DNA from: a virus
IMG/VR virus record: IMGVR_UViG_3300017991_000072
Location: 1-64,000 of that record
Length of the DNA stretch: 64,000 nucleotides
Strand: one strand, 5' to 3'
The translations under genes and the position numbers were made by a program. This document shows, piece after piece, positions 34,701 through 52,303 of this stretch (position 1 is the first letter of the stretch; every line of letters starts with the position of its first letter). The notes under the pieces were generated by a model. That model was not told the origin of the DNA. It saw only the letters and a program-made list of their open reading frames with translations, and made no database searches.

Positions 34701-36192
34701 GGGACCTGAACCTGATGACCAGATCGTTCTGGTTATCACAGGCCGCTGGAAGCGTCTTGGTTTCGTTCTTCCACTCCATGGGGGTGGAGATCTCCATTCC
34801 GTCCATGAAGTCATGTTGAACCCACGGACCTCCTGGCCCGTCCACAGAGTAGTCCAGGTAGCCCTTGGTGTAGGGAGGAAAGATGTCTGTCCCCGTCCAG
34901 CGCCAAGAGACCGTCACGTCCTTCATGGACTGGGTGTTCAGTTGGATGTAGGCGTATTCCACAGCGCCTTCCAGGGAGTCAATCAGCCCTTCATAGGTAC
35001 TGTCCGCCGCGCCGTAGTCCGCCACTGTGACCTTGGCCTCCGTGGACTCCGTCCAGGCCGGGTCCTGGGAGTCCCAGTCCTGGCCGTCTTCAAAGTCTTC
35101 ATAGACCAGGTCCACCAGGTCAGGAACCGTGATCAGGATTTCAGGACACACCTGGGGAAGAGGGGTTGGCGTGGCCGTAGGCGTGGCCGTGGGGACCACG
35201 GGGGTAGGCGTGTTCGTTGGGCCTGGAATGGGCGTGGCCGTGGCTATGGGCCTGACACCTGGGGGTGGGTCCGTCTCTGGGTCAAAGTAGAGCCGGAGCG
35301 CGTAGCGTCCAAGGTAGGCCCCTGGGTCAGGATCCTCTGGCCCCTCCCAGGCTTCTCCATCTTGCCACTTCAGCCAGCCGTAGCCTCCTTCCCCCCAACC
35401 TAGCCCCCAGGAATTCTTGATCTTGAACGCTGATATACTGTCATCATAGCCCACAATGGCTACCGCGTGGGTCCCCAGATATTCTCCCCAAGCGTATTCA
35501 TAGACGCCCCCCGTGTAGTAGATGATGTCTTCATAGATGACCAGCGTGGCCTCCACGGGACCTCTGAAGACCGCCGCCTTGATGGCCTCCACGTTGACGG
35601 TTCCGTAGGATAACCAGGACCATTGATTGACCTTCCAGACTCTATCTTCCCAGTCTTCACACCGGTCAAAACAGTTGTTATCCACGCCAGAGTAGCGGAG
35701 ACAGGCGTCATCTGGGACGCCCGTGTTCTTGAATAACTGGGCCGCCGCTGAAATAGACATCCCTATTTCACAGTCTCCGCCTCCACAGGAGAAGACGAAC
35801 TGTTCAGACAGATCTATGGAGTAGTCCTGGAAGCCCGTGACGATCCTGACCACAGCTTCATAGACCGCCACCTGGCTGAAGGCCGAACAGGCCCCACAGC
35901 TTCCCTGTTGTTTGACGGAAGTCATCCACGGGGACCAGTCCCAGTAGGGAGGAAGAAGGGAGAAGGCCGTGGCTGGCGGATCGTCTCCGGCTGACGTGTC
36001 ATGGGGTGGTTCCGACGCCGGGAACATGGACTTCAGTTGGGCCGTTGACTTCTCTGACAGAGATGTGTGGCCCGCTGACCAGTTCAAGCCCTTGTCCTGG
36101 ATCTCCTGTTGGATCGTGGTCATCTTGACCGCGTCCCCCAGAGCCCACACAGTCACCAAACACATCCACGTCCACAGGATGGACTTCTTCAT
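31729..36192 (-). CDS. Secreted papain-family (C1A) cysteine peptidase with TolB-like propeller and beta-sandwich modules
   Basis: Signal peptide; [36 protein letters not shown]; PD40-like P.WSPDG repeats; Pro-Thr linkers. Confidence 0.9.
32905..33057. repeat. Coding tandem repeats of 6/12 bp (PT/PTNT linker)
   Basis: Repeated GGCGTGTTCGTT-type units; shorter linkers at about 33565-33632 and 35165-35245. Confidence 0.85.
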
Positions 36193-36959
36193 CCGCTGTC
36201 CTCCGCTTCACCCCCTGGAACGGGGGTCTCTGGTTCGCTGGTTCCGTTCGTGTTCCCGCCTTCTTCGTCCTCCCCCTCTTCTTCCTTTGGACGTTCCTTC
36301 CCGTTCAAGAGACAGTCAAAGGAAGTCCACAGCTCCGCGTTGATCTTGATGAACGCCTGTTCCTCTTCCCTGGTGGTCTTCTCTTCCTCCACCAGCTCCG
36401 CCATCCTCCTGGACAGGATGGCGTTCTGGGCCGTCATGGTCTTGGCCGCGAAGGGAACACAGCCGGTCAGAGTCAGCGCCAAGAGAAGGAGGCCCGTGGC
36501 CTGGGCCGCGAAGGCTGACGCCTTGGCCAGCTTCCTCTTCAGCCTTCTCTTCACCTTCGCCTCCTCCTTCTTCTTCAGCTTCTTGACCATCTCCCTGGTC
36601 AAGTCTCTGTATTCGTCGGGGGTTGAAACGTAGACTTCCTCCGGCGGAGAGTGATATTCACACCAGCCGTCTGACCCGTATTCTCTACAGATGTGGGTTC
36701 GTCGCTGTCTATGAATTGAACAGCGTCCCCGTTCAAGATACTGGCAAGGGATTCTGACGTAGAGCGTCCAGGCTCCTTCTTCTGGTCTTCCTCCATCAGT
36801 CTCCGGAGTGAATCCAATGACTGTCTGTCCGTTTCTATACAGATACCAGAGGCCATATTCCCATTCCTCCAAGGTGGTGGGCTTGTCCAGCTCCATTCCG
36901 AAATACTCACAACACCGTCCGCCACATTCAGGGGGACATCCACGGGGGTTCTGGGCCAT
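36189..36959 (-). CDS. YkgJ/CxxCxxCC-type cysteine-cluster domain joined to a lipoprotein-like C-terminal part
   Basis: C..ECGGRCC, CQYL..RCSIH.R..ICR.Y; internal basic stretch plus LLLLALTLTGC lipobox. Confidence 0.65.
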   Translation of the reverse strand: MAQNPRGCPPECGGRCCEYFGMELDKPTTLEEWEYGLWYLYRNGQTVIGFTPETDGGRPEEGAWTLYVRIPCQYLERGRCSIHRQRRTHICREYGSDGWCEYHSPPEEVYVSTPDEYRDLTREMVKKLKKKEEAKVKRRLKRKLAKASAFAAQATGLLLLALTLTGCVPFAAKTMTAQNAILSRRMAELVEEEKTTREEEQAFIKINAELWTSFDCLLNGKERPKEEEGEDEEGGNTNGTSEPETPVPGGEAEDSG

Positions 36960-37013
36960 CGTCTCCTCCTTGTCTTCGTGTAGGGATAGGTCTGGGGAAG
37001 TCTGTCAGGATCC

Positions 37014-37043
37014 ATAATACCCCAGAACAGTCCGGACCATCAA
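37014..37043 (-). promoter_or_regulatory. Possible leftward sigma70 promoter
   Basis: TTGATG-N18-TATTAT on the minus strand at the divergence point. Confidence 0.35.
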
Positions 37044-37162
37044 GCCGGGTTTGTCAAGGGGGTCCGGTTTCGCGTGTGGGATCCGGGGCCATGCTCCCCT
37101 CCCCTACCGTCCCGGACACACTATACTGTAGGCCGCGCCCACGGACGCCCCCACATCTTGGG

Positions 37163-37284
37163 CCTGAAAAAAAGTTCTCCCTGGGTCATTTTTTCTTCAT
37201 TTTTCTCTTGACAAATGGACGGGGATGGTTTAGACTATAGCCATGATGAACGAAGAAACAAACCCCAAACCCCAGGAGGCCAAG
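37163..37284 (+). promoter_or_regulatory. Promoter module 1
   Basis: T-rich tract, TTGACA(37208)-17-TAGACT, ATG 37243, shared leader plus SD. Confidence 0.85.
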
Positions 37285-37536
37285 ATGATCACCCTGACAG
37301 ACGAACAGATAGCCGTAGTGGCGGAAGCGGACAGCGTTCATGACTACGCCTGGTCCTACATCACCATCAGGAAACAGACCGCGTCCTTCCAGCGGGCCTT
37401 CTACCTGGTGGAGACGATGGTTCACAAGGCTGAACACATGGAACTGGCGGAGGACCAGGTGTCAGGGCTCCAGGTGGCCACGGAATGGCTGAAACATGAG
37501 ATCAAGAACGCGGGCCACCCAGTAGCCGGACTGTAG
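37243..37536 (+). CDS. Hypothetical early protein (second start 37285)
   Basis: Promoter module, two in-frame starts. Confidence 0.7.
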   Translation: MMNEETNPKPQEAKMITLTDEQIAVVAEADSVHDYAWSYITIRKQTASFQRAFYLVETMVHKAEHMELAEDQVSGLQVATEWLKHEIKNAGHPVAGL

Positions 37537-37595
37537 AACCCCACGGGCTCCCTGGGGATCACCCAGGGAGCCCAGAACCCCAGAAGGAGGACCCC

Positions 37596-37787
37596 ATGAT
37601 ACGGACGAAGAAAGCCAAGAAGGTTCTGACGAAGAAGGAACAGCGCCACCTGACAGAGTCCAACATACACACCATGGCCGCCATGGAGCGCCAGGTGGCC
37701 TTCCTGAAGACCTACGAAGGGAACCCCACCATCTATCCCTGTTGGGAGTGTAGGGCCATAGCCCGGAAGCTTGGTCTGATGGACTGA
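37596..37787 (+). CDS. Hypothetical protein (CWEC motif)
   Basis: Hairpin, leader and AGGAGG SD. Confidence 0.7.
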   Translation: MIRTKKAKKVLTKKEQRHLTESNIHTMAAMERQVAFLKTYEGNPTIYPCWECRAIARKLGLMD

Positions 37788-37802
37788 CGCCCAGGACCCC
37801 CG

Positions 37803-37931
37803 TGACCCCTGGAGAAAAAAATTCTCCAGGGGTCATTTTTTCTTCATTTTTCTCTTGACTTTTCTGGCTCCCTGGGTTACAATAAGATCATGGAAACACA
37901 GAAAACACCCCAAACCCCCAAGGAGGAGACG
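37803..37931 (+). promoter_or_regulatory. Terminator-promoter module 2
   Basis: TGACCCCTGGAGAA/TTCTCCAGGGGTCA stem, T tract, TTGACT(37855)-17-TACAAT. Confidence 0.9.
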
Positions 37932-38324
37932 ATGAACTGGACCAAAGAAATCAGCCAAGAGGCCGCTGACAAGGTGAAGAAGGCTGGCTACGTGGACCCC
38001 ACAGCCAACCATCACCTGATCTCTGAAGCCGCCGCTGAAGCCCACACGATCCTGGGCCAGGAGATCTTCCTGGCGAAGGACCACGCCTGTGAAGTCAGCG
38101 TCCAGATCCCCAAGACGATCACGGATGAATTCCAGGCCACCTATGACGCCTACAAGCTGATCATGATGGAGATGGAAGCCATCCACCCGGCCAACAAACC
38201 AGAACTGACGCCCCAAGGCTATGACCGCCTGATGGCTGGCCTTCAGGAAAAGGCCGCGCCCCTTCGTTCCAAGCTTTACTCCCTGGAGATGGTCCTGGTG
38301 TCCATCGTCCAGGCCCAGATCTGA
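37890..38324 (+). CDS. Hypothetical early protein (second start 37932)
   Basis: Module 2. Confidence 0.7.
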   Translation: METQKTPQTPKEETMNWTKEISQEAADKVKKAGYVDPTANHHLISEAAAEAHTILGQEIFLAKDHACEVSVQIPKTITDEFQATYDAYKLIMMEMEAIHPANKPELTPQGYDRLMAGLQEKAAPLRSKLYSLEMVLVSIVQAQI

Positions 38325-38391
38325 CGAACCACGGGGGAGGGACCACGGGGGTCCCTCCCCTTCCCCCAACCCCACAGAGGAGGACAAGAAG

Positions 38392-38826
38392 ATGAAAGCC
38401 ACCAAGGACCAGATCAGAGGAATAGTAGGAGTCTTCCAGGACATCCTGGCCAAGGCGGAAGACAAGCTGAACACCAAGGAGATGGAGATGACAGAGCCCT
38501 ACGCCCACTACACTCCCGCCAAGGACGGAGGGACCTACAGGGCTGTCTGTCTGAATGACCTTCCCAGTGAAGCCTTCCAGGCCATGGACTCCGCCACGGA
38601 GGCCGTCTCCCGCGCCAAGATGGTCATCAGGGAAGGACTCCGCTTCTGGGAATTGGGTCAGATCTCTGATGAAGACCTGGTCTTCAAGGCCGCCCAGGCC
38701 AACGTCAACCTGGCCATGGAGGCCGTGGACAAGGCCCTGGAAGCCCCCAACCCCAGGCCCAAGACCAGGCCCAGGCCCATCAAGGCCAGGTTTGGGGAGA
38801 CCAGGCCAGCGTTCCCCGTGTCATAG
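38392..38826 (+). CDS. Hypothetical protein
   Basis: Hairpin, leader and SD. Confidence 0.7.
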   Translation: MKATKDQIRGIVGVFQDILAKAEDKLNTKEMEMTEPYAHYTPAKDGGTYRAVCLNDLPSEAFQAMDSATEAVSRAKMVIREGLRFWELGQISDEDLVFKAAQANVNLAMEAVDKALEAPNPRPKTRPRPIKARFGETRPAFPVS

Positions 38827-38835
38827 TTGACACAG

Positions 38836-38972
38836 CCCCCTGGTGAAAAAAAATTCGCCAGGGGGTCTTTTTTCTTCACTTTTCTCTTGACAAATGGGGG
38901 ACCATGGTTTATAATAGAGCCATGATGAAGGAAGGAAACAAACCCCAAACCCCCCAAAAGGAGGAGGACCTG
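38836..38972 (+). promoter_or_regulatory. Terminator-promoter module 3
   Basis: Stem with a G-U pair, TTGACA(38887)-17-TATAAT. Confidence 0.9.
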
Positions 38973-39383
38973 ATGATGACCCTTCAAGAAGCTACCGCTG
39001 GACTGATCGCTGGAACCGTGACCACGGATGACCTGAAGGTCCAAGGGTTCACGGCTGATGAACTGATCGCTGTGGTGGAGGCCATCCCGCCGTTCACAGG
39101 CTGTCCCTGTTGTTCGGATGAAGAGCCCGGCGCTGACTACGCGGACTTCAACATGTCCCTGTCCCGTCAGTTGGCCTTGGCTGACGTGAAGGTCTGTGGG
39201 TCCTGTGGAGCCATCCACGGAACCGTGGAGACCTGGGAAGCGGCCCACATGGTCTACCACCCCACGATGGTGGCCAAGGCCACGGGGGAGGAGATCTACG
39301 TGGACCTGACGATCCGTTCAGAGAATGAACGGTTCCATGGCTGGATGGACTCCGCCACCAAGAACCTGACCCAGGTTGGCTAG
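38922..39383 (+). CDS. Hypothetical Zn-binding protein (CPCC..CGSC; second start 38973)
   Basis: Module 3. Confidence 0.7.
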   Translation: MMKEGNKPQTPQKEEDLMMTLQEATAGLIAGTVTTDDLKVQGFTADELIAVVEAIPPFTGCPCCSDEEPGADYADFNMSLSRQLALADVKVCGSCGAIHGTVETWEAAHMVYHPTMVAKATGEEIYVDLTIRSENERFHGWMDSATKNLTQVG

Positions 39384-39457
39384 GACCTGGGAGGAAGCCA
39401 GGGAGGGACCCGTGGGTCCCTCCCTTCTTCGTTCAACCCCAAACCCAGGAGGAGACG

Positions 39458-39664
39458 ATGACCAGAGAAGAGGCCCAACGGATGGACCCAGAGGAGGCCA
39501 AGCTGAAGGCCAAGAGACTGGCCCAGGAAGCTGATGAACTGATCTCCAAGATGGAACTGGCCCACCCCCATTCCCAACGCTACACTGAACTGTGGAACGA
39601 ACTGACAGCCGTGGAACAGGAACAGCTAGTTCTGACCTGGGCTCCAGGCTACGGAGCCTGGTGA
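39458..39664 (+). CDS. Hypothetical protein
   Basis: Hairpin, leader and SD. Confidence 0.7.
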   Translation: MTREEAQRMDPEEAKLKAKRLAQEADELISKMELAHPHSQRYTELWNELTAVEQEQLVLTWAPGYGAW

Positions 39665-39722
39665 CGGAATAGAGCCCAGGCCCTACCCCTGGCGAACGAT
39701 CCAGGGGAGGGACCTGGGACGG

Positions 39723-39755
39723 GAGCCCCGGCGTTCAGACCGGGGCTCTTTTTTT
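39723..39755 (+). terminator. Intrinsic terminator
   Basis: GAGCCCCGG..CCGGGGCTC followed by T7. Confidence 0.8.
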
Positions 39756-39859
39756 GTCTGGATCCCCTGGCCTATGCTCCGCCTCCGCACCGTCCCGGAT
39801 GTGGTATTATCCCACCACAATGTCAAGAGAAGAGTGAAAAAAATTTCGTCTGGTGTCAA

Positions 39860-40001
39860 GATTTCTTCATTTTTCTCTTGACTTTTAGGATTGACCTGGG
39901 GTATAATAGGGCCACAGTCAAGATAGTTGACTGGTTGAATTCGGATCTTTGACAACTGAATAACGGACACAGAAACCCCCAAACCCCAAGGAGGGAAACC
40001 C
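39860..40001 (+). promoter_or_regulatory. Promoter module 4 with hairpin and rrn-type boxA in the leader
   Basis: TTGACT(39878)-18-TATAAT; hairpin 39915-39933; GATCTTTGACAACTGAATA at 39944-39962. Confidence 0.75.
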
Positions 40002-40241
40002 ATGGACGTGTTCTCTGTTCTGATCATCGTGGCTGTGGTTCTGACCAAGGTGGAGGCCCTGGAGGACGCCCTGGAGGCTTCTGAAGCGGACTTCTTCCCC
40101 GCCCAGGTCCTTGTGGTCCTGGTGGCCAGGGACGCCCTGGTGGGAGCCCTGGCGGGCTTCCTGGAGACGGGAACGGGGCTCCAGGATCTCCTGGACGCGG
40201 CCCTGGACCTGGATGACGCCCTGGTCAAGCTGGCGAAGTAG
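40002..40241 (+). CDS. Hypothetical Leu/Ala-rich protein
   Basis: Leader and GGAGG SD. Confidence 0.6.
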   Translation: MDVFSVLIIVAVVLTKVEALEDALEASEADFFPAQVLVVLVARDALVGALAGFLETGTGLQDLLDAALDLDDALVKLAK

Positions 40242-40246
40242 AAACA

Positions 40247-40380
40247 GACCCCCAGAGAAAAAAATTCTCTGGGGGTCATTTTTTCTTCATTTTTCCCTTG
40301 ACTTTTAGGAATGGGTGGTTTATAATAGGGTCATGATGAACGAAGGAAACAAACCCCAAACCCCCAAGAAGGAGGAAACC
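40247..40380 (+). promoter_or_regulatory. Terminator-promoter module 5
   Basis: GACCCCCAGAGAA/TTCTCTGGGGGTC; TTGACT(40298)-17-TATAAT. Confidence 0.9.
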
Positions 40381-40638
40381 ATGAACCAGATGACAACGAA
40401 GAAGAACGCGGGAAGAGACATGGTCCGGAAGGTGAAGGCGGAACAGATGTCCTTTGTGACGGAGGACCAGTTGGCCGTTATCGCGGAGGACGATGAAACC
40501 AGGATGACCCCCATCCTTGTCCGCTGTGGGAATGGACGCTTCACGTGTCCCGCCCAGAACGCGGCCTGGTTCATTGACATCATCACCAAGGAAGGGACGG
40601 ACTACGTCAGGGACGCCTCCATCTACTCCAGCTACTAG
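40333..40638 (+). CDS. Hypothetical early protein (second start 40381)
   Basis: Module 5. Confidence 0.7.
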   Translation: MMNEGNKPQTPKKEETMNQMTTKKNAGRDMVRKVKAEQMSFVTEDQLAVIAEDDETRMTPILVRCGNGRFTCPAQNAAWFIDIITKEGTDYVRDASIYSSY

Positions 40639-40652
40639 CCTGAACCCCTCCA

Positions 40653-40786
40653 GCCCCCCAGAGAAAAAAATTCTCTGGGGGGCCTTTTTTCTTCACTTTT
40701 CTCTTGACTTTCTTGACGGGGTGGGCTATAATAAGATCATGGAAACAGCGAACAAACCCCAAACCCCCAAACCCCAGGAGGACAGA
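40653..40786 (+). promoter_or_regulatory. Terminator-promoter module 6
   Basis: Same stem; TTGACT(40704)-17-TATAAT. Confidence 0.9.
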
Positions 40787-41191
40787 ATGTCAGTCACACA
40801 GTTCAGCGCGGAAGCCGTTTCCCAGATGGCCCACAGCATAGCCGCCCACGCCCGTCTTGATGAAGAGTTGGCGGAGATCATCCTGGAGTCCAAGGCGGCC
40901 CACCACGCTGGCCGCGTGGAGTTCAACCTGGACACGGATGACGTTTCCTTCAAGCTGGTCCACTACATGAGGCTGTCCAACCTGGTGGCCTACTCCATCC
41001 AATACCAGGAGCCCATGGTTCCCGTCTACACCATTGATGACTACTACGGGGAACCCCTGGTGGCCAAGGAGCTGGCGGAGGAAATTGACCACTGGATCTA
41101 CAACGTCCAGACCAACGCGGGGACCGCCCTGGTGGACCCGCTCTGGTTTGAACTGTTCCAGGCTGTCAGGGACCACCTGGCCGCGAAGTAG
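40739..41191 (+). CDS. Hypothetical early protein (second start 40787)
   Basis: Module 6. Confidence 0.7.
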   Translation: METANKPQTPKPQEDRMSVTQFSAEAVSQMAHSIAAHARLDEELAEIILESKAAHHAGRVEFNLDTDDVSFKLVHYMRLSNLVAYSIQYQEPMVPVYTIDDYYGEPLVAKELAEEIDHWIYNVQTNAGTALVDPLWFELFQAVRDHLAAK

Positions 41192-41204
41192 CCCACGGCC
41201 TCCA

Positions 41205-41332
41205 GACCCCCAGAGAAAAAAATTCTCTGGGGGTCATTTTTTCTTCATTTTTCTCTTGACTTTTCCCCGGGGATGGGTTACAATAAGATCATGGAAACAG
41301 GAAATCAACCCCAAACCCCGAAGGAGCCCAAG
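41205..41332 (+). promoter_or_regulatory. Terminator-promoter module 7
   Basis: Same stem; TTGACT(41256)-17-TACAAT. Confidence 0.9.
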
Positions 41333-41563
41333 ATGAAGATGAACCCCAACGGATCAGTCAGTTTCAGCTATGAAGAGATCGTGGCGGCGGCGGAAGAGAC
41401 CAAGAAGGCGGAAGCGGCCCGCGCCAACGCGCCCATGATGGCCGTCAGCTATGAAACCCCCGTAGGGACCTTCAAGGACTGGATCAAGGCGGCGGAGCGC
41501 GTGGAGGCTTTGGACATGGACCCCGTGGAGGTCATCAAGGTAGTCAGAACCCCTATCAGCTAA
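41291..41563 (+). CDS. Hypothetical early protein (second start 41333)
   Basis: Module 7. Confidence 0.7.
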   Translation: METGNQPQTPKEPKMKMNPNGSVSFSYEEIVAAAEETKKAEAARANAPMMAVSYETPVGTFKDWIKAAERVEALDMDPVEVIKVVRTPIS

Positions 41564-41630
41564 GGACAGGAACCACGCCCCCCCAGGATCCCCTGGGGGG
41601 CCAACCCCAACCCCAACGAAGGAGGACACG

Positions 41631-42029
41631 ATGAACAGACAAGCCAAGATCCCCCAGGAGATGGCCACCTACCTGGTGGACGCGGAGGACAAAGGCTGGA
41701 CCGGTGGCCAGGTGACCAGGTGGGTCCGGAACTGGATGAAGGACCTAGTCTGGGATGACAAGGACCCCCTGGGGGAGTCCGTGGCCGTGACCGTCCCCTG
41801 TTCCCTGGTGGACCAATACGGGAAGCTGATGGCCAAGGAGGACGAAGTCAGGACCTTGATGGAGACCAGAGCCCAGACCCTTGGCCTGGTGTCCTGTGAC
41901 CCCAGGTCTGAAGAGTACAGGGAGACCAGGAGGAAACACCTGAACCTAGTCAACGCCCTGGACATGGTCAGGGAGTCCAGGAGGAACCTGGAAGACGCCA
42001 TGACCTGGGTCCTGTTGGCCCAACTGTAG
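41631..42029 (+). CDS. Hypothetical protein
   Basis: Hairpin, leader and SD. Confidence 0.7.
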   Translation: MNRQAKIPQEMATYLVDAEDKGWTGGQVTRWVRNWMKDLVWDDKDPLGESVAVTVPCSLVDQYGKLMAKEDEVRTLMETRAQTLGLVSCDPRSEEYRETRRKHLNLVNALDMVRESRRNLEDAMTWVLLAQL

Positions 42030-42080
42030 ACGAACCCAACGCGGCCCCCTGGGGAGACCTGGGGGGCCAAGGAGGACCCC

Positions 42081-42386
42081 ATGGAAGGACAAGAACCCAA
42101 GATGGTCTCCGTCATGGTGGCGGAGAAGCTTCTACAGGATTATGACACGGCCTTGATGGGAGCCAGGAACATGGAGGGACGCCTATTGAACGCTGAACAG
42201 TGTCTTCTCCAGTCCGTCCTGGACTGTGACCAGGAAGCCTATGAAGAGGCCCTGGCCCAGAGGGACAGGGTCCAGGCTTCTCTGGACCTGGCCAAGAACC
42301 AGGCGGCGGCCCTGTCCGTCACGATAGCCAAGAAGGCCCTTCAAGACTGGATGACCCCAGGGACTCCAGTCTTCCCAGAGGATTGA
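42081..42386 (+). CDS. Hypothetical coiled-coil protein
   Basis: Hairpin and AAGGAGG SD. Confidence 0.7.
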   Translation: MEGQEPKMVSVMVAEKLLQDYDTALMGARNMEGRLLNAEQCLLQSVLDCDQEAYEEALAQRDRVQASLDLAKNQAAALSVTIAKKALQDWMTPGTPVFPED

Positions 42387-42387
42387 A

Positions 42388-42446
42388 CCACGGGTCCTCC
42401 CGTGGGTTTGGGGTGGGGCTCCCCCAGGGGTGGGGGAGCCCCTTTC
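42388..42446 (+). ncRNA. 3'-end anti-leader element plus terminator
   Basis: GTCCTCCCGTGGGTTTGGGGT (antisense to shared leader), then GGGGCTCCCCCA/TGGGGGAGCCCC stem and TTT. Confidence 0.55.
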
Positions 42447-42448
42447 TA

Positions 42449-42477
42449 TTGACTTCAGGCGGACCATGGTCTACACT
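42449..42477 (+). promoter_or_regulatory. sigma70 promoter for sRNA-1
   Basis: TTGACT-17-TACACT. Confidence 0.7.
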
Positions 42478-42483
42478 GAAGCC

Positions 42484-42565
42484 TGATCCACAGGGAACGG
42501 CGGGGCTTCCCCGTCCTCCTTGGGGTTTGGGGTAGGGGTCCAGGAGGGGTCCTGGACCCCTCTTT
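42484..42565 (+). ncRNA. Putative anti-leader sRNA-1
   Basis: Own promoter and terminator, no ORF; 42513-42533 is the exact reverse complement of ACCCCAAACCCCAAGGAGGAC. Confidence 0.65.
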
Positions 42566-42615
42566 ATATTGTGGTTCTTCTTGAACAGCTCCCCCACATG
42601 TGGTATGGTGGAACC

Positions 42616-42705
42616 TGCTAGGGCTGACTTGGTGTCCGTACCAGCGCCGGGTCACTCTGTTTCCTCCTTTGGGCTCCCCACGCGCCACGGGGAGCCCTTC
42701 CCTTC
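42616..42705 (+). ncRNA. Putative anti-SD sRNA-2
   Basis: TTGAAC(42581)-17-TATGGT promoter, 10-bp stem with three G-U pairs, GTTTCCTCCTTTGGG, terminator-like stem 42671-42697. Confidence 0.5.
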
Positions 42706-42707
42706 TA

Positions 42708-42723
42708 TGTTCCACGTGAAACC
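42708..42723. promoter_or_regulatory. parS-like site
   Basis: TGTTCCACGTGAAACC, 15/16 match to TGTTNCACGTGAAACA; intergenic. Confidence 0.55.
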
Positions 42724-42863
42724 CTGACTCCCTGGACCCCCGGGCCATGCTCCGGCCGGAGACCGTCCCGGATGTGGTATTCATCCACCACAACGTCAAG
42801 TCCCCACTTGACACGCCCCCCTTCCTCCTCCCCCCTGGTTATGCTCCCCCCAGGAAATCCGGG

Positions 42864-42911
42864 ACACCACATGTGGTATACCCACGGCCACGGACCCCCT
42901 ACATTTTGTGG
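42864..42911. promoter_or_regulatory. Tandem NrdR-box-like operator pair (32 bp apart)
   Basis: ACACCACATGTGGTAT and CCCCTACATTTTGTGG. Confidence 0.5.
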
Positions 42912-42919
42912 TGTCATAT

Positions 42920-43029
42920 AGCGAATTTTTCTACACTGAACCCTTGACAACAGGGGGTCCCCTGGTGTATATTAGGGGTAGATAGTGAGAATGAAACGGA
43001 CCCCAGAACCCCAAACCAAGGAGGACAGG
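42920..43029 (+). promoter_or_regulatory. Promoter module 8 (divergent copy)
   Basis: TTGACA(42944)-18-TATATT with TG; leader and SD. Confidence 0.75.
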
Positions 43030-43416
43030 ATGAACGCAAGAACCAACGATGACTTCAGGAAGGAAGGAACCAGGAAGGCCACGCTGGCGTTCCTTTCCGC
43101 CCTGACAGAACAGGAGGAAAGCGGAGAACCCCCGGCCATGTTCATGATCTGTCAACAGAAGAACCCCATCACGGGACGGAGGAATGAAGTCAGGTTGACG
43201 GCCGGTGTTCAGGCCATGGGAGCCATAGCGGCCGGTCACGTCCTGAAAGCCGTTCATGACTTTGACACCTTCACAGAGGATAATGACCCCTACGGGGAAC
43301 ATGACTTTGGGATCGTCAGGATGGAAGGGGAAACCCTGAACTGGAAGATTGATGACTACCAGGGCTATGATGGGATTGAATTGGTCCTGACCATCATGAC
43401 GGCCATGGAATACTAG
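42991..43416 (+). CDS. DUF3768-like protein (second start 43030)
   Basis: FDTFTEDNDPYGEHDFG, WKIDDY, VLTIMTAMEY signature. Confidence 0.8.
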   Translation: MKRTPEPQTKEDRMNARTNDDFRKEGTRKATLAFLSALTEQEESGEPPAMFMICQQKNPITGRRNEVRLTAGVQAMGAIAAGHVLKAVHDFDTFTEDNDPYGEHDFGIVRMEGETLNWKIDDYQGYDGIELVLTIMTAMEY

Positions 43417-43477
43417 AAACCCCAGGGAGCCCGGCCACGGCCGGGCTCCCACCACCCCCCAAACCAAGGAGGACAGA

Positions 43478-43741
43478 ATGGACCCCATCACGAACCCAAG
43501 ACCCACCACCCACCAATGGAAGGAAGGGGACAGGGTAGCCTTTTCTAAAGCCTTCCTCCGCAACACTGGCCAGTGTGACTATGAAACGGCCAGAGGCCGG
43601 GGGACCATCATCAGCGTGGCCCCCGTGGGGGACCTGACCATAGCGTCTATCAGATGGGACGGGATAGGTCTGGTCACTAACGTCAACGTGTTGAACCTGT
43701 CCCTGGTCACCAGGGACGGGGTAGTTCAGGACAGGGACTAG
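43478..43741 (+). CDS. Small SH3-like beta-barrel hypothetical protein
   Basis: GDRVAFSK.FLR..RGTI..IRWD..NV..NL. Confidence 0.65.
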   Translation: MDPITNPRPTTHQWKEGDRVAFSKAFLRNTGQCDYETARGRGTIISVAPVGDLTIASIRWDGIGLVTNVNVLNLSLVTRDGVVQDRD

Positions 43742-43801
43742 GAAGTCACCAGGGAGCCCTGGCGCTGGCCGGGGCTCCCACCCCCACCCAAGGAGGACAG
43801 G

Positions 43802-44041
43802 ATGGATCTGGAACGCTACAGGGTCTTCACAGCCCAGAAATTCATGGCCATGACCACGGGGGAACGCCAGAGGACAAAGCCCACCATGATGTTCAGCCGG
43901 GAATACCTGGCCCTGGCCCTGGCGCTGGCCTCTGAAAAGGTCATCATCTATGACGCCCAGGAAGACCTGGCGTGGCATTGTGGGGACCTGGTCACGAAGG
44001 CGGGATGGTACGATGGGAGCGGACAGCTAGTCAACCCGTAG
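43802..44041 (+). CDS. Hypothetical protein
   Basis: Hairpin, leader and SD. Confidence 0.65.
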   Translation: MDLERYRVFTAQKFMAMTTGERQRTKPTMMFSREYLALALALASEKVIIYDAQEDLAWHCGDLVTKAGWYDGSGQLVNP

Positions 44042-44267
44042 CCCTTCACCGGGGACCTGGTGAAGGGGTCCCCTTGGTTAGCCGGTCCCGGGGAAACCCG
44101 GGGCCGGTCTTTTTATGCTCCCCTCTGGCCCCGTCCCGGATTGTGGTATACTGTATCCACAATGTCAAGCCCTGGCTTGACGGGCCGTCTGCTAATCCAC
44201 GAAAAGCCGGGACGGCCCCACATGTGGTAGGCCCCGTCCACCACCCCTATATTTTGTGGTGTCCGTG

Positions 44268-44382
44268 GGCGTCTTTTTCTTCACTTTTCTCTTGACAAAA
44301 GGGGAACGCCGGGCGTATAATAGACCTGTAAGCTGAACAAAGGGTTCAGCGAAACCCCAACCCCCAACCAAGGGAGGACAGA
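44268..44382 (+). promoter_or_regulatory. Promoter module 9
   Basis: TTGACA(44292)-18-TATAAT; 5' hairpin GCTGAAC/GTTCAGC in place of an upstream ATG. Confidence 0.85.
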
Positions 44383-44580
44383 ATGTTGGTAGCGTGTTAC
44401 AAGACCAAGAAGGCTTTGAAGGAAGCCGTGGGACAGGCTCTTCTATATGAAGAGACTTCCTTGTTCGGGGAGGAATACCGCCCGGACGGGACGTTCCCAG
44501 TGGTAGGCCCCGGGGCCTATGAGCGTAAATGGTACGCGGAAGTTACCATGAAGGGAGGGAAGATCCACAAGGTCAAGTAG
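44383..44580 (+). CDS. Small phage hypothetical protein
   Basis: YKTKKALKEAVG..ETSLFGEEY..RKWYAEVTM pattern; leader and SD. Confidence 0.75.
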   Translation: MLVACYKTKKALKEAVGQALLYEETSLFGEEYRPDGTFPVVGPGAYERKWYAEVTMKGGKIHKVK

Positions 44581-44639
44581 GAACCTGAACCGGCCCGGGG
44601 CTCCGGCCCCGGGCCATTCTTCCAACCAAGGGAGGAACC

Positions 44640-44924
44640 ATGAACACACAAGAGACCCTAGAATTCACTGGACACCAGATGGCCCGGGCCAATACGGTCC
44701 TGTCAAGCCTTGACGGAGCTGGCCCTATGTCCGTCTGTAAAGCCGCCGCCGTGGCCCAGAAGGCCAACCAAATAGCGGAAAGCCTACCAGCCCTTGACAA
44801 GCTGGCCGGACACCTTGAAAGCCATCCTGATGACCCCGTGGCCCTTCTGGCCGTTCAAGCCTATACCGTGGCCGTGGGCGTCCACCTTGACCTTCTGGAA
44901 CTGACCCTTCAAATGACCCTATAG
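44640..44924 (+). CDS. Hypothetical protein
   Basis: Hairpin, leader and SD. Confidence 0.65.
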   Translation: MNTQETLEFTGHQMARANTVLSSLDGAGPMSVCKAAAVAQKANQIAESLPALDKLAGHLESHPDDPVALLAVQAYTVAVGVHLDLLELTLQMTL

Positions 44925-45185
44925 CCTCCCCCCAGGGGGGAGGAATTCCCCCTTGGTTGGCCCCGGTCCCTTCTGGGACCGGGGCCTTTCTTTTGTCAAC
45001 CCCAGACTTGACATAGTGGTGTGCAAATGTCATTTTCCGTCCCGGACGTTGACCGTTTCCCAGGGCTCCCAGAGCGGAGCGGAGCGGAGCGGGTCCCCGT
45101 AGGGGACCACGGCCCCCGTCCCATCCGGGACGGGGGCCGGGAACCGCATAGAGAGAAGAGACCGGAACCGGACCCGGCCGGACCC

Positions 45186-45311
45186 ACCTGAAAAAAAATT
45201 CGCGGGAGGACGTTTTTTCTTCACTTTTCCCTTGACTTTCGTTCTGGGATGGTTTAGAATAGGGGTGTAATGAGGAAACGAAACACACCCCAAACCCCGA
45301 AGGAGGCCAAG
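45186..45311 (+). promoter_or_regulatory. Promoter module 10
   Basis: TTGACT(45232)-17-TAGAAT. Confidence 0.85.
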
Positions 45312-46226
45312 ATGGCAACACAGAGCGGACAGGACAAGGTTTTCCAGATCTTCACAGACCAGATCATGGACATGTTGGAAGAGGGGACGGTCCCCTGGCG
45401 TCAACCTTGGAAGGGCGGGAAGATCCCCATGTCCTTCCAGACCAAGCGGCCCTACCGTGGGATGAACGTCTGGTTCCTGAACAGCGTGGCCATTCATCGC
45501 GGCTACACATCCAACTGGTGGGTGTCCCTGAAGTCAGTGAAGAAGGCCAAGGGCTGGATCAAGGACGATGAATTCAAGAAGTCAGTGACCGTGATCTTCT
45601 GTAGGCCCAAGCGGTACGAAGTGGAGACGGACGAAGTGGACGAACAGGGCCAGCCGGTCAAGGAAGAGCGGATGTCCTTCATCTACTTCTACCACACGGT
45701 ATGGAACATGGACCAGGTGGAAGGGATGACGGCCCCTGACGCGGACCAGGACGCGGAGGAGCGGACCCCCAACCAGATCCTTGAAGAGGCCCAGGCCATC
45801 ATTGACGGCTACCAGAACGGCCCAGAGATCAGCCACGGCGGGACCAGGGCTTTCTATCGTCCCTCTGATGACTCCGTGACGGTCCCAGAGATGGAACTGT
45901 TCCAGGACAGCGAGAACTACTACCACGTGATGTATCATGAACTGGCACACTCCACGGGTCACGGTTCCCGCCTTGGGCGGAAGGGAGTCATGGACCTGAC
46001 CATGTTTGGATCCCATGACTACTCCAAGGAGGAACTGGTGGCGGAGATGGGAGCGGGCTTCCTGGGAGCCCTGGTGGGACTGACCCCCAGGACCATTGAC
46101 AACACGGCGGCCTACATCCAGTCCTGGCTGAAGGCCCTGAACGATGACAAGCGGCTCCTGGTCTACGCGGCCAGCAAAGGCCAGGCGGCGGCGGAACACA
46201 TCCTGGGCGTGACCTGGGAAGGATAA
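45270..46226 (+). CDS. ardC: ArdC-like ssDNA-binding anti-restriction protein (DUF1738 plus zincin-like domain; second start 45312)
   Basis: PWRQPW, RPYRGMN, VWN.DQ.EG, AFYRPS.D, HELAHSTGH..RL.R, YSKEELVAE, AAYIQSWL. Confidence 0.9.
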   Translation: MRKRNTPQTPKEAKMATQSGQDKVFQIFTDQIMDMLEEGTVPWRQPWKGGKIPMSFQTKRPYRGMNVWFLNSVAIHRGYTSNWWVSLKSVKKAKGWIKDDEFKKSVTVIFCRPKRYEVETDEVDEQGQPVKEERMSFIYFYHTVWNMDQVEGMTAPDADQDAEERTPNQILEEAQAIIDGYQNGPEISHGGTRAFYRPSDDSVTVPEMELFQDSENYYHVMYHELAHSTGHGSRLGRKGVMDLTMFGSHDYSKEELVAEMGAGFLGALVGLTPRTIDNTAAYIQSWLKALNDDKRLLVYAASKGQAAAEHILGVTWEG

Positions 46227-46301
46227 CAGGGAGGAAGCCTGGGAGTCCCACAGTGGGGCTCCCAGGCCCTTCAAACCCCAAACCAGAAGGAGGACAGAAC
46301 G

Positions 46302-46775
46302 ATGGAACAGACAGACTACACAGCGGACAGAGAACTGGCGGTCAAGGCCCTGGAACAGATGGACTACATCCACCTGGAACGCGGACAGGTGGCGGCCCTG
46401 GTGGACACCTACCGGGTCATCACCACCCATAACCCTGGCGCGGTCCCAGGCCATGAAGAGGAACTAGGGACCCTGGCCGGGCTCCTGGTCATGAGCGTAG
46501 GAACTGGCGTCAAGCTGATCCCAGAGGACGGACCCCCCAACGTCCGGGTGGGAGTCCCCAGGCTCCTGGTGGAAGCCATCAAGGACATCAACATCCAGAG
46601 GGACAAACTGGCGGCCTACAAGGAGGAACACAAGGACGGAGGAGGACCAATAGACCCCAAGTCCATGGAAGTCCTGGAGGCCCAACAGGCTACCCACAGG
46701 GCGGCCCTTTCCACGGCCCTGGTCAACGTCATCATCACGGACTTGGCTGGAATGGCGGACGCTGGAAGCTACTAG
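46302..46775 (+). CDS. Hypothetical protein
   Basis: Hairpin, leader and SD; terminator at about 46793-46832. Confidence 0.7.
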   Translation: MEQTDYTADRELAVKALEQMDYIHLERGQVAALVDTYRVITTHNPGAVPGHEEELGTLAGLLVMSVGTGVKLIPEDGPPNVRVGVPRLLVEAIKDINIQRDKLAAYKEEHKDGGGPIDPKSMEVLEAQQATHRAALSTALVNVIITDLAGMADAGSY

Positions 46776-46916
46776 ACTGACCCTCCCCCACAGAGCCCCG
46801 GCCCGGTTCGTCCGGTCCGGGGCTCTTCTTTTATGCGGGCCGGGACTAGCGTCCCGGATATACGCCATTTCCCACGGTCCCCATCACGTGGTAGACTATG
46901 GATGAAAGGAGATCCC

Positions 46917-47219
46917 ATGACCTACACTCTATCCCAGGCGGGGACGGCCTACGCTGAAGCGGCGGCCACGTGGGCCAGGGCTATGGAAGCGGAGGAGGCG
47001 GTCAGACAAGAAGGCCCTGACCTGAAGGTTGACAAGTTCCTCCACGTGACGGCCTTGTCCACAGTGATCCGCCAGGCTATGAACGGCCTGTCCCAGGCTG
47101 TCATGATCTTCATCTGGCGAAACAACGAAGGGAACCACGCGGTCCTGGAAGCGGCCATGGCGGAGACTATCCGCGTGACGGCGGACGCCAACGCCCTTAT
47201 GGACTCCTACGGATACTGA
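46917..47219 (+). CDS. Hypothetical Ala-rich protein
   Basis: AAGGAG SD; TGG-TAGACT extended -10 upstream. Confidence 0.6.
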   Translation: MTYTLSQAGTAYAEAAATWARAMEAEEAVRQEGPDLKVDKFLHVTALSTVIRQAMNGLSQAVMIFIWRNNEGNHAVLEAAMAETIRVTADANALMDSYGY

Positions 47220-47365
47220 ACCCCCTGGACCCCTGGGCCACCAATGACTGTTTATTAACCCTGAACTGTCATTCTGTTGTTACCGGTTATCAGGCCCAGG
47301 GGTCTTTTCTTTCCCCCACGCGGGCGCGGGCGGGCGCGTGGGCGCGTATACGCGGGCGCGGGGCT

Positions 47366-47490
47366 CCTGAAAAAAGTTCTCCCAGGGCGTTTTTTTCTTC
47401 ACTTTTCTCTTGACATCCGTGGACGGGTCCCCTATAATAAGGACCATGGACACAGCGACAAACCCCAAACCCCAAACCACGGAGGACAAC
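47366..47490 (+). promoter_or_regulatory. Promoter module 11
   Basis: TTGACA(47410)-17-TATAAT. Confidence 0.85.
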
Positions 47491-47829
47491 ATGTCCACAC
47501 TGAACGCCCTTGGAACCCTTCTCTACAGCCTCCCCGTTCCCACCCGTCACGCCTACACCATCACCATCTGTGACCAATACCAGGACACAGAGCCTACCAC
47601 CTGTGTGGTCAACGCGGAGACCCAGGGCGCGGCCCTGGCCAAGGCTGTGGAGGTCTACTCCACAGAATTCTACGGCCACGCGGTCACCCTGGACCCCCAG
47701 GTCCTTCATGACGCTGTCACCGTCATCTTCCATCCTGACGGCGGCGTGAACCCCGTGGGGTTCTTCGCCAGTGACCCCCAACCCATCCGCCTTCAGCGCC
47801 TTGGGGACCCTGTCCCCTTGTCCGCGTAA
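47446..47829 (+). CDS. Hypothetical protein (second start 47491)
   Basis: Module 11. Confidence 0.65.
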   Translation: MDTATNPKPQTTEDNMSTLNALGTLLYSLPVPTRHAYTITICDQYQDTEPTTCVVNAETQGAALAKAVEVYSTEFYGHAVTLDPQVLHDAVTVIFHPDGGVNPVGFFASDPQPIRLQRLGDPVPLSA

Positions 47830-47895
47830 GCGGACCCCCTGGGGGGTGGGAATTCTCCCACCCCCCGGCTGGAACCCCAAACCCAGGAGGACATC

Positions 47896-48096
47896 ATGGA
47901 CCAAGTCAAGAAGAGCCTGACCAAGAAAGCCCTGAAGGCCAAGCTGAACCAAGCCAGGGAAGAGCTGACCTACCTGGAGGACTTCCTGGCGGGACCCTGT
48001 TGTGTGTCCCACGCGGAGATTGACGCGGCCGGGGATGACACCTACAGGCTTCAGAAGGAGATCAGGGAGCTGAAGGAGGCCCTGGCGGCCCTGTGA
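47896..48096 (+). CDS. Small coiled-coil protein
   Basis: Hairpin, leader and SD. Confidence 0.7.
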   Translation: MDQVKKSLTKKALKAKLNQAREELTYLEDFLAGPCCVSHAEIDAAGDDTYRLQKEIRELKEALAAL

Positions 48097-48111
48097 TCTT
48101 TTTTTCGTCAG

Positions 48112-48210
48112 GCGGCGTTTTTTCTTCACTTTTCTCTTGACAAAGCCTGAAGGATGGTTTACACTTACACCATGGACACAGACCGCAAACCCCAGACCCA
48201 GGAGGACACG
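48112..48210 (+). promoter_or_regulatory. Promoter module 12
   Basis: TTGACA(48137)-17-TACACT. Confidence 0.85.
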
Positions 48211-48819
48211 ATGAACGAAGATCACATCACCCAAGAGGCCACGCGGCGGCTGGAAGCCCTTCACCCCTACCTGACCAGGGAGATCAAGCTGGCTCCCCCG
48301 TCTCCCCCAGAGAAGACGGCTGAAGAGTACAGGGAAGAAGCGGCCCGTCACGCGGCGGAGCGCCTACGGTCCCAACAGGAGTCAGACACGGACGGGTTCC
48401 TGTCCCAGTGGGCCAGCGGCCTGAACAGTTCCCTGGCGTCCAGGCGGGCGGAGATCAAGGAGAACGGCGGGAACTGGGAGTTCTGGGGACTCTACCGTAG
48501 GGCGGACGGGAAGCGGATCAGGGCCAAGATGATAGACGGGAAGTATGGCCTCTGTTGGGCCATCTGTGACGAACATTCCACCTTCACGGGTCAGTTCTTC
48601 TCCGTGGACGGGACGGGCTCCAAGAGGACCAAGCTGTGGAAGGCTGGCCTGGAAGAGCGGCGTGAAATGGCCCCGGCTTGGGCCAAGATGGACGGGAAGG
48701 GAACGGGCCTGTCAGGTCAGGCTTGGGTGTCCACCTACAGGATAGACGGCGGCTACCCCTTGGACGCGGTCAACCTGGACTCCCCCGTGGAGGACCCTGA
48801 CCCCACGCCGGACCCATAG
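48172..48819 (+). CDS. Phage hypothetical protein (SDTDGFLSQWASG motif; second start 48211)
   Basis: Module 12. Confidence 0.7.
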   Translation: MDTDRKPQTQEDTMNEDHITQEATRRLEALHPYLTREIKLAPPSPPEKTAEEYREEAARHAAERLRSQQESDTDGFLSQWASGLNSSLASRRAEIKENGGNWEFWGLYRRADGKRIRAKMIDGKYGLCWAICDEHSTFTGQFFSVDGTGSKRTKLWKAGLEERREMAPAWAKMDGKGTGLSGQAWVSTYRIDGGYPLDAVNLDSPVEDPDPTPDP

Positions 48820-48879
48820 CCTTCCCCCAAGAAGGCCAAGAGGACGGAAGCGGAACTACGGCGGGACCTTTCCGCCATC

Positions 48880-49011
48880 ATGAGGGGTCACAGAGTATGT
48901 CAGGACTGTGGCCAGGTCAGGCCCACGGCTGAAGTCCACGTCCCTGGACGTGGGATGGCTAGGGTCTGTCAGGACTGCTATGACGTGGCTGTCTATGAAC
49001 TGACGGCCTAA
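48880..49011 (+). CDS. Possible 43-aa zinc-ribbon peptide
   Basis: MRGHRVCQDC..VCQDCY; weak SD. Confidence 0.35.
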   Translation: MRGHRVCQDCGQVRPTAEVHVPGRGMARVCQDCYDVAVYELTA

Positions 49012-49041
49012 CCCCAACCCCCAGGACAGGAGGAAGGAACG

Positions 49042-51262: not shown

Positions 51263-51470
51263 AGGAGAACTGGAAGAGCGCGGGATTGAAATTGATCTGT
51301 CAGGTCCCCAGGGGAACGGGTTTGTCCTGATTGGGTACGCCAGGAAATGGGCCAAACAGTTGGGGAAGGACGCGGACGCCATCACCAAGGACATGGAGTC
51401 AGGAGACTATGACCACCTGGTTGAAGTCCTGGAACGGGAGTTTGGGGACTACGTCACCATCTACAGGTAG
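51246..51470 (+). CDS. Small phage protein (IDLSGPQGNGF motif)
   Basis: Motif recognised from small phage proteins; SD present. Confidence 0.7.
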   Translation: MAIKDRGELEERGIEIDLSGPQGNGFVLIGYARKWAKQLGKDADAITKDMESGDYDHLVEVLEREFGDYVTIYR

Positions 51471-51479
51471 GAGCCCAAG

Positions 51480-51689
51480 ATGAAACACATCAGACTGGGA
51501 AGACCCCAGGTCTTCAACGTCCAGACAGGTGACGAAAGATGCTACTTCTGTGACAAGCCACCCACGGGGGCCTGTAGGAGCTGTGGAGCCCACGTCTGTG
51601 ACGATCATGACGAACACCAGGGACAGGACGGGAAGCCCTGTCCCACGGGGAGCGTCCACGGAGCCCCGAAGGAGGACGCTGATGGCTAA
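51480..51689 (+). CDS. Double zinc-finger family protein
   Basis: CYFC-x6-CRSC-x4-CDDH. Confidence 0.65.
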   Translation: MKHIRLGRPQVFNVQTGDERCYFCDKPPTGACRSCGAHVCDDHDEHQGQDGKPCPTGSVHGAPKEDADG

Positions 51690-52110
51690 GTTCACACGGC
51701 CACGGATCCATTGGGAGAAGTCAGGGGTGGAAGTGTGCTACTTTTGCCTGACTGAACTACCTGAACACGTCTGTCCACGATGTAGAGCCCACGTGTGTGA
51801 CCTACACTGGAAGAAGCGGCCCAAGATGTGTTCCCAGTGTCACCTTGGACACTACCCTGACCAATACACCAAGGAAAGGCTTCTGAAGAACCTGGACACC
51901 CTGGTGGCGGTCACGGCCAAGACGTGGGCGGAACAGACCCCCAACTGGCAAACCATACAGAGGAAGGAACGGATCACGGATGTCAGGCTGATGGGGGAGG
52001 CCATCCGCCACTACATCCTGTCAAGTGAAAAATGTTCCCAGGAAGAGGCCCAGAAGCCCCCAGAAGAAGAGCGGAGCGGGGGAAGGATACTACGGAGCCC
52101 GAAGAACTGA
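51682..52110 (+). CDS. Double zinc-finger family protein
   Basis: CYFC-x8-CPRC-x4-CDLH-x8-CSQC; AAGGAGG SD. Confidence 0.7.
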   Translation: MAKFTRPRIHWEKSGVEVCYFCLTELPEHVCPRCRAHVCDLHWKKRPKMCSQCHLGHYPDQYTKERLLKNLDTLVAVTAKTWAEQTPNWQTIQRKERITDVRLMGEAIRHYILSSEKCSQEEAQKPPEEERSGGRILRSPKN

Positions 52111-52125
52111 AGAGTCTACATGAAG

Positions 52126-52187: not shown

Positions 52188-52303
52188 TATGGGGGCGGGG
52201 GTCTTGACGCTGGTGGCGTGAAGTGGATAGGCTGTCAACATTGGCGGGAAGACTGGGCCTGGCGGGGACATACTACCTGTGGGGGGTAGTGAAGGAGGAC
52301 AGG

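Follow-up and report, generated by a model that had tools for sequence, protein, structure and literature searches.

Eighteen early genes of the phage described here share a leader that includes the SD sequence, and an inverted copy of this leader (element A) lies at the 3′ end of one early operon, between the stop codon of its last gene and a terminator. The question raised by this locus is what the complement of a ribosome-binding region does at the end of a message. The window, which is the whole stretch of DNA that was analyzed, corresponds to positions 1–64,000 of a 99,864-bp IMG/VR record from an uncultured marine-sediment phage. The sequencing runs listed as containing the phage are DNA runs labelled as sediment or seawater metagenomes, with no RNA run among them, and the TerL protein of the closest cultured phage, Bacillus phage BCD7, is 39% identical. 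The minus-strand genes at 1–37 kb include those for the portal, the large terminase and the tape-measure protein. The plus-strand genes, which extend from 37.2 to ∼52.7 kb, are mostly small ORFans and include one ArdC-like gene; from this gene layout we infer that they are early genes. PHROGs and Pfam gave no function for the early proteins near element A. The cassettes of the early region have the order terminator, T-rich stretch, TTGACx-17-TAxAAT promoter, leader and ATG, and the promoter/terminator scan returned 14 promoter-like sites (2.3 expected) and 29 terminator-like sites (11 expected). Around element A, the AT skew, the genes and the promoters are all those of the plus strand. The features on which the analysis is based are the following:

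37263 to 49033, plus strand: 18 leaders (CCCCAAACC..GGAGG, with the ATG 5–9 nt on), found with the loose leader pattern
42081 to 42386, plus strand: ORF of 101 aa with no family, the last of a three-gene early operon, ending with the stop codon TGA
42388 to 42405, plus strand: hairpin A, CCACGGG / UCCU / CCCGUGG, 7 bp, −12.6 kcal/mol alone (direct reading and RNAfold)
42394 to 42414, plus strand: anti-leader core of A (GTCCTCCCGTGGGTTTGGGGT), an inverted copy of the early leader together with its SD
42406 to 42414, plus strand: G/U linker GUUUGGGGU (DNA GTTTGGGGT) between the two hairpins
42415 to 42450, plus strand: intrinsic terminator A with 12 perfect pairs (10 G–C), a GGGG loop and the tail UUUCUAUU (terminator scan and RNAfold)
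42449 to 42477, plus strand: promoter of unit B, TTGACT-17-TACACT (promoter scan)
42484 to 42570, plus strand: unit B, ∼85 nt, no ORF, with its core at 42513–42533 and terminator at 42534–42561
42581 to 42710, plus strand: unit D, with promoter TTGAAC-17-TATGGT (42581–42609), a 5′ hairpin, GUUUCCUCCUUUGGG (42659–42673) and a terminator (42671–42697)
52126 to 52190, plus strand: copy C, 16 nt past the stop of ORF 51682..52110, with its core at 52133–52154 and terminator at 52155–52182

The leader CCCCAAACC..GGAGGAC is found upstream of 18 plus-strand early genes (37.2–49.0 kb), and the leader word is located 20–40 bp 3′ of the −10 boxes. In the whole 99,864-bp genome, the loose leader pattern occurs as 18 plus-strand copies and 3 inverted copies, where ∼1.9 chance matches are expected for both strands summed. 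Some cassettes (37243–48213) also contain a promoter-proximal ATG, which lies 6–17 nt past the −10 box and 39–51 nt from the SD-led ATG. The two ATGs are in frame, with no stop between them, in 10 of the 10 cassettes that have the first one; the eleventh cassette (44383) lacks it. Translation from the promoter-proximal ATG would read the leader as ..KPQTP.. or ..NPKP.., and the reading frame relative to the CCCCAAACC word varies among cassettes, which implies that the constraint acts on nucleotides. These in-frame upstream ATGs suggest dual initiation (leaderless and SD-led) or a guard against out-of-frame translation. Contigs of related strains from two public DNA runs seem to join cassettes inside the shared leaders (39441/41621, 40368/37290 and 41615/42095), which suggests that cassettes are shuffled through recombination at leaders; on one side, some of these joints are supported by just 21–34 matching letters. 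DNA contigs from four sequencing runs showed both strain variants and joints between leaders.

Element A is located directly after the end of ORF 42081..42386, in the operon with a promoter at 41256. The preliminary description had placed it there, followed by a linker and a terminator, and this was borne out: the TGA occupies positions 42384–42386, and the hairpin follows at 42388–42405 (5′ arm 42388–42394, loop TCCT 42395–42398, 3′ arm 42399–42405). The proposed CCACGG-GTCCTC-CCGTGG stem with the anti-SD displayed in its loop was half correct. The predicted stem has 7 pairs rather than 6, so the loop is UCCU, and the rest of the anti-SD lies in the stem. In line with the earlier reading, the reverse complement of the element, ACCCCAAACCCACGGGAGGAC, matches the leader pattern. 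RNAfold, which had been named as a check, returned the same two hairpins as the MFE and as the centroid structure of 42384–42450 (−47.1 kcal/mol, z = −4.6 versus shuffles). The UCCU loop has an unpaired probability of 1.0, the anti-SD heptamer GUCCUCC as a whole is ∼57% unpaired, and G42394 and C42399–42400 are located in the stem. The core of element A includes GGGUUUGGGG. The linker GUUUGGGGU, which is complementary to ACCCCAAAC of the leader, is a candidate seed or toehold; its unpaired probability in silico is just 0.2–0.4, and its possible partners within the RNA are the U tail and a leader-like CCCCAGGG in the conserved end of the coding sequence.

Terminator A is formed by a stem-loop at 42415–42442 and a tail (DNA TTTCTATT) at 42443–42450. 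It has the properties of a Rho-independent terminator on the plus strand, and the minus strand has no U-tract. The position of the element between a stop codon and this plus-strand-only terminator agrees with its original assignment to the plus strand. The promoter scan found no internal promoter for element A. As judged from the motif, GGAUU at 42380–42384 could be an RNase E-type site. The end of the ORF 42081 coding sequence (42320–42386) contains a hairpin of its own, AGACUGGA..UCCAGUCU, in addition to the leader-like CCCCAGGG. In comparison with the related contig L070, the last 22 codons of this ORF show one nucleotide difference, and the first 72 codons differ in 45. The conserved end may mark a boundary of recombination or reflect an RNA-level constraint that extends into the coding sequence.

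The strict 18-base pattern GTCCTCC-N1-4-GGGTTTGGGGT was found on the plus strand at 42394 (A), 42513 (B) and 52133 (C) only. The chance expectation is ∼1e-5 by our own estimate, which excludes a chance origin. Each of the three inverted leader copies adjoins a plus-strand terminator. Copy C follows the plan of A, with the hairpin CCCACAGG/UCCU/CCUGUGGG, the linker GUUUGGGGU, a 12-bp terminator and the tail UUUUCUAU, and its hairpin differs from that of A by one compensated pair (G–C to A–U) and one added pair. Unit B is predicted to be a stand-alone non-coding RNA gene. In unit D, GUUUCCUCCUUUGGG is single-stranded, with an unpaired probability of 1.0, and displays a free CCUCCUUU. The UCCUCC layout is present 5′ of 4 of the 13 strong plus-strand terminators of the region (those of A, B, C and D), and the other nine are without an anti-leader core. 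As a separate observation, CCUCCA, which may be a weak anti-SD or a chance occurrence, lies immediately 5′ of two of the cassette terminators with AAAAAAA loops, at 40653–40683 and 41205–41235.

The terminators of A, B and C each contain 12 perfect Watson–Crick pairs, with an A–U pair closing a GGGG loop. Between copies, 3–7 pairs of the stem differ, and all of these differences are compensated on both sides, with no one-sided change. As MAFFT misaligned the 3′ arms of A and C by one column, the stems were compared directly. The 18-nt core (GTCCTCC plus GGGTTTGGGGT) is identical in four distinct copies, i.e. A, A of L070, B and C. Judged by this common plan, A, B and C are paralogous modules. 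If the core changed at the rate of the stems (25–58% of positions), zero changes in 18 positions would have a probability of ∼7e-4 for the A–C pair by our own arithmetic. The invariant core points to selection on its sequence or to gene conversion with leaders. A conserved seed in a variable scaffold, which serves as a criterion for 3′UTR-derived sRNAs, is present in these modules.

A metagenome scan for the anti-leader-plus-terminator word yielded five useful relatives (L065, L066, L068, L070 and L072); L064, L067, L069 and L071 from the same scan were rejected as unrelated, their hits being chance or RBS matches. L068 and L072 represent a close strain in which element A is identical. Their unit B has an additional U and an additional G, together with a change of the 5′ arm from CCACAGGG to CCCAGGGG that restores a 9-bp helix with G–U pairs, and the outer helix of unit B is compensated in L072. 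L070 is more distant (ORF 42081 is 72% identical). In this contig, the stem of hairpin A is kept and the loop contains an extra C (UCCUC), and terminator A is shifted and has 3 compensated pairs. Both hexamers of promoter B and their 17-nt spacing are retained in L070 over a heavily diverged spacer, and the inner hairpin of B is re-registered from GGCGGGG-CUU-CCCCGUC to GGACGGG-GUCA-CCCGUCC. The 5′ hairpin of unit D has three different sequences in three strains (the window, L070 at 2160–2300, and L072), all of which fold and covary, and the helices of this unit hold G–U pairs that would be mismatches if read on the other strand. The open stretch of unit D, CUCUGUUUCCUCCUUU, is invariant; L070 and L072 read CCUCCUUUCU, which resembles a typical 16S rRNA 3′ tail. 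In their pattern of change, units B and D look like genuine plus-strand RNA genes.

In L065 and L066, the gene 5′ of C is unrelated (43% identity), and a mosaic boundary is located exactly at the start of copy C. At 52100–52304, C and the next intergenic DNA are 97–99% identical, and the next coding sequence is 78% identical. Between the window and L070, 13 of the 101 codons of ORF 42081 have synonymous-only differences, and the divergence is clustered in amino-acid-changing patches. Because the synonymous divergence of the relatives is low, plain conservation is weak evidence; the useful part of the comparison appears to be the pattern of change, namely the compensation and the hexamers retained over a diverged spacer. 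Among the relatives found, there was no lineage with a different leader word. A blastn search of 41000–44000 against the phage collection gave no match. The IMG/VR pattern scan returned 54 single-hit contigs, a number that is roughly estimated to be compatible with chance, and the leader system was not found in a second genome. Searches guided by the proteins of ORFs 42081, 41631, 49042 and 36189 found one near-identical fragment and no other relatives. The TerL relatives G002 and G003 (88% identical) stop short of the early region, and the TerL search of genome contigs found no prophage relative.

These comparisons bear on whether the modules are structural terminator modules with no antisense role. 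According to this explanation, an inverted leader was captured beside a terminator and then duplicated, the hairpins only secure termination or protect the 3′ end, and gene conversion with leaders, or a recent spread of the module, accounts for the identity of the core. As A, B and C are paralogous, their shared position beside a terminator may represent a single event, and the frequent recombination at leader words that is apparent in related strains (with the one-sided support of some joints given above), the mosaic boundary at the start of C and the low baseline divergence of the relatives are all consistent with it. However, the core is invariant next to stems that have changed at 25–58% of positions, unit B has gained a conserved promoter of its own, and the independent unit D likewise exposes an anti-SD, in a fully open stretch. 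The nine other terminators of the region, which lack the core, also argue against a purely structural role, and we consider such a role possible and rather doubtful.

The complementarity of A to the early leaders is reflected in the calculated energies. The duplexes of A with 27 early TIRs have a mean of −34 kcal/mol, compared with −22 kcal/mol for 70 minus-strand control TIRs. Once the cost of unfolding both partners is included, most leader-bearing genes retain a net energy of −12 to −18 kcal/mol, and leaderless-type TIRs retain one of about −2 to −6 kcal/mol. The pairing consists of an 11–12-bp block with (C)ACCCCAAACCC(A), a 2–3-nt bulge and a 7-bp block with GGAGGAC. At least 9 contiguous pairs with A are formed in 16 of the 27 early TIRs, and the longest unbroken leader match of A is 12 bp. 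Unit B is the most consensus-like, with 18 contiguous pairs with the leader of 40002 and the best energy per nt. Element A, at −1.52 kcal/mol per nt, is average among the reverse complements of single leaders and is the least consensus-like of A, B and C. The ‘master key’ argument, in which an anti-leader is nearer to the consensus than single leaders are, holds for B and was dropped for A.

Pairing of this kind could also be confined to cis, with the 3′UTR of A folding back on the leaders of its own operon alone and setting both the translation and the decay of that operon. The precedent is the icaR mRNA of Staphylococcus aureus, in which the 3′UTR anti-SD UCCCCUG pairs with the SD region, blocks ribosome binding and invites RNase III cleavage (PMC3868564). 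Element A resembles it as a pyrimidine anti-SD in an mRNA 3′UTR, 5′ of a terminator (PMC3868564). It lies between the stop codon and the terminator and complements the SD region of the mRNA that would carry it. Its pairing with the own-operon TIRs (41309, 41605 and the RBS at 42066) is favourable, with net energies of −15.1, −12.9 and −7.9 kcal/mol, respectively, and the ORF 42081 RBS, GGAGGACCC, matches GGGUCCUCC of A over 9 nt. However, the best matches of A are not the own-operon leaders, and units B and D stand alone without a leader of their own, which leaves only action in trans for them. The icaR element acts on its own single mRNA, whereas the complement in A runs 11–12 nt past the SD and covers part of a leader that 18 genes have in common. 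In addition, the system described here is phage-encoded, with three paralogous copies and stand-alone RNA genes, and has no homology to icaR. Exclusive action in cis is in our view unlikely.

At the level of DNA, the leader word might be an operator or a recombination linker whose orientation does not matter to the protein that reads it, and the inverted copies would then be no more than further sites. This would be in agreement with the distance of the word from the −10 boxes (20–40 bp) and with the mosaic joints of related strains, which fall within leaders. It is made quite improbable by the inverted copies themselves, which include the SD complement and always occur in an RNA hairpin/terminator context on the transcribed strand, and by the G–U pairs in the helices of B and D, which favour RNA.

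A switch between a G-quadruplex and the terminator would involve four tracts (GGG, GGGG, the GGGG of the terminator 5′ arm and the GGGG loop). A co-transcriptional RNA G-quadruplex would pre-empt the terminator, and the equilibrium would respond to free leader RNA or to ions. Three of the five canonical plus-strand G-quadruplex motifs (loops of ≤8 nt, 99.9-kb genome) coincide with modules A, B and C (42404–42430, 42522–42549 and 52143–52170), and the GGGG tetraloop and its A–U closing pair are invariant across the copies despite stem variation. However, G-tracts arise automatically when a C-tract leader is complemented, the 12-bp G–C hairpin is very stable, and the conserved anti-SD is left unexplained, so that we regard such a switch as very improbable. 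Finally, a true RBS for a minus-strand gene, the outcome that the preliminary description had named as its refutation, can be dismissed: the minus strand does read leader, GGAGGAC and GTG, but the GTG is just 2 nt after GGAGGAC, the ORF, antisense to a plus-strand coding sequence, is 16 aa long in the window, reaches 60 aa in L070 and comprises 4 aa at C, the start codon is missing at B, no conserved minus-strand ORF follows the inverted copies at A, B or C, and the promoter scan found no minus-strand promoter nearby.

The explanation that we favour, and to which we give an even chance, is that element A is a 3′UTR anti-leader RNA that would pair with early leaders and block ribosome binding, acting in trans with or without additional action in cis. 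Host RNA polymerase would transcribe the operon from the 41256 promoter and stop at the terminator at 42415–42450, so every operon transcript would end in hairpin A, GUUUGGGGU and the terminator hairpin. Pairing with early mRNAs, at their C/A-rich leader (ACCCCAAACCC) and SD (GGAGGAC), would be seeded by the G/U stretch together with the UCCU loop. The 7-bp hairpin A would then open, giving rise to a two-block duplex (11–12 bp and 7 bp) over the ribosome-binding site. This duplex would prevent 30S binding and, being long and GC-rich, would possibly also be a substrate of RNase III. The effector would be the operon transcript's 3′ end, either intact or after trimming. As units B and D would act only in trans, this is taken as the main mode for A and C too, and pairing with the own-operon leaders is possible in addition. 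Element A has the promoter class of its targets, and a delayed shut-off would therefore require a 3′ fragment that outlives the mRNAs. What counts against the anti-leader RNA is the predicted internal pairing of A, which takes up half of the anti-SD and a large share of the linker, together with its average fit to the leader consensus and the 12-bp length of its longest leader match. The preliminary description had interpreted the element as a 3′UTR-derived sRNA with feedback proportional to early transcription or as a fold-back within the same mRNA; its observation was confirmed, and its interpretation is partly supported.

Element A might, with its two paralogues (B and C) and the anti-SD RNA of unit D, constitute a regulon-wide RNA brake on early protein synthesis. 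We tentatively extend this to an RNA-only off-switch for early translation, a proposal that is more likely wrong than right in its full form. It would be composed of four anti-leader RNAs, of which A and C, in 3′UTRs, would have a dose that tracks early transcription, and B and D would be stand-alone. Each would be gated by a hairpin, which the leader would open from a G/U toehold, and the terminators might also switch via a G-quadruplex.

Phage early-to-late switching is known mainly to proceed via proteins, such as sigma and anti-sigma factors, repressors and RegA. The RegA protein of T4 is a translational repressor that acts on many early mRNAs, binding their initiation regions and thereby stopping their translation. 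The function proposed here is similar, and the difference lies in the effector, which is a protein for RegA and would be RNA for element A. Among RNAs, the c4 antisense RNA is excised from the same transcript that carries its target, and the Rsa sRNAs of S. aureus contain hairpins with UCCC loops. An Rfam cmscan of 36000–54000 (E ≤ 1) gave seven matches, all below the gathering scores and on terminator hairpins, and c4 (RF01695) was not among them. The c4 RNA of P1/P7 (Citron and Schuster, 1990, listed in the review PMC12197685), P22 sar and lambda OOP are, like the RNA proposed here, small phage RNAs that target the ribosome-binding regions of phage mRNAs by base pairing. They serve one gene or operon in lysogeny decisions, whereas element A is proposed to act on a whole early regulon.

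The cuckoo/CcsR (alpha-r14) sRNAs are chromosomal, alphaproteobacterial RNAs with CCUCCUCCC loops and 2–4 hairpins, each with a 9-nt loop motif (PMC4615179). The similarity consists in C-rich anti-SD words on hairpins, variable stems with a fixed word and many targets (PMC4615179). In contrast, the single hairpin of A has a UCCU(C) loop, and the G/U stretch outside this loop provides the larger part of the pairing. Membership of A in the cuckoo/CcsR family was rejected, as it has one hairpin, no CCUCCUCCC and no Rfam match. By analogy, element A would work like icaR, c4/sar/OOP and the cuckoo-type anti-SD RNAs, and it is a member of none of these groups. The SAS/ESAS of Cluster K mycobacteriophages is a 13-bp SD-containing word that is located 3–7 bp before many non-structural starts in one orientation; rare or single copies on the complementary strand were noted, and whether the reader is RNA or protein was left open (PMC3203893). 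Both systems have a private SD-containing word before many genes and rare inverted copies (PMC3203893). The word and the host are different, and the inverted SAS copies were given no role, whereas those described here are located in hairpin–terminator modules. A limited literature search found no description of a phage RNA aimed at a shared early leader.

If the anti-leader reading is true, a few short RNAs would silence some 18 genes at once through a private leader tag. This would provide a function for the ‘private leader words’ of several phage groups, e.g. the Cluster K SAS, and a simple, portable tag and anti-tag design for the synthetic control of gene sets. It would also be a testable case of a 3′UTR that measures the dose of the regulon to which it belongs. 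Its four units and its evident paralogy make the locus a good first experimental case.

The neighborhood of unit D contains further symmetrical sequences. The perfect palindrome CCACATGTGG occurs twice (42594–42603 and 42867–42876), and one copy overlies the −10 box of the unit D promoter. The sequence GTCAAG-N6-CTTGAC is found at 42797–42814, inside the same 500-bp non-coding island as the two palindromes. The CCACATGTGG palindromes and GTCAAG-N6-CTTGAC are possible operator sites.
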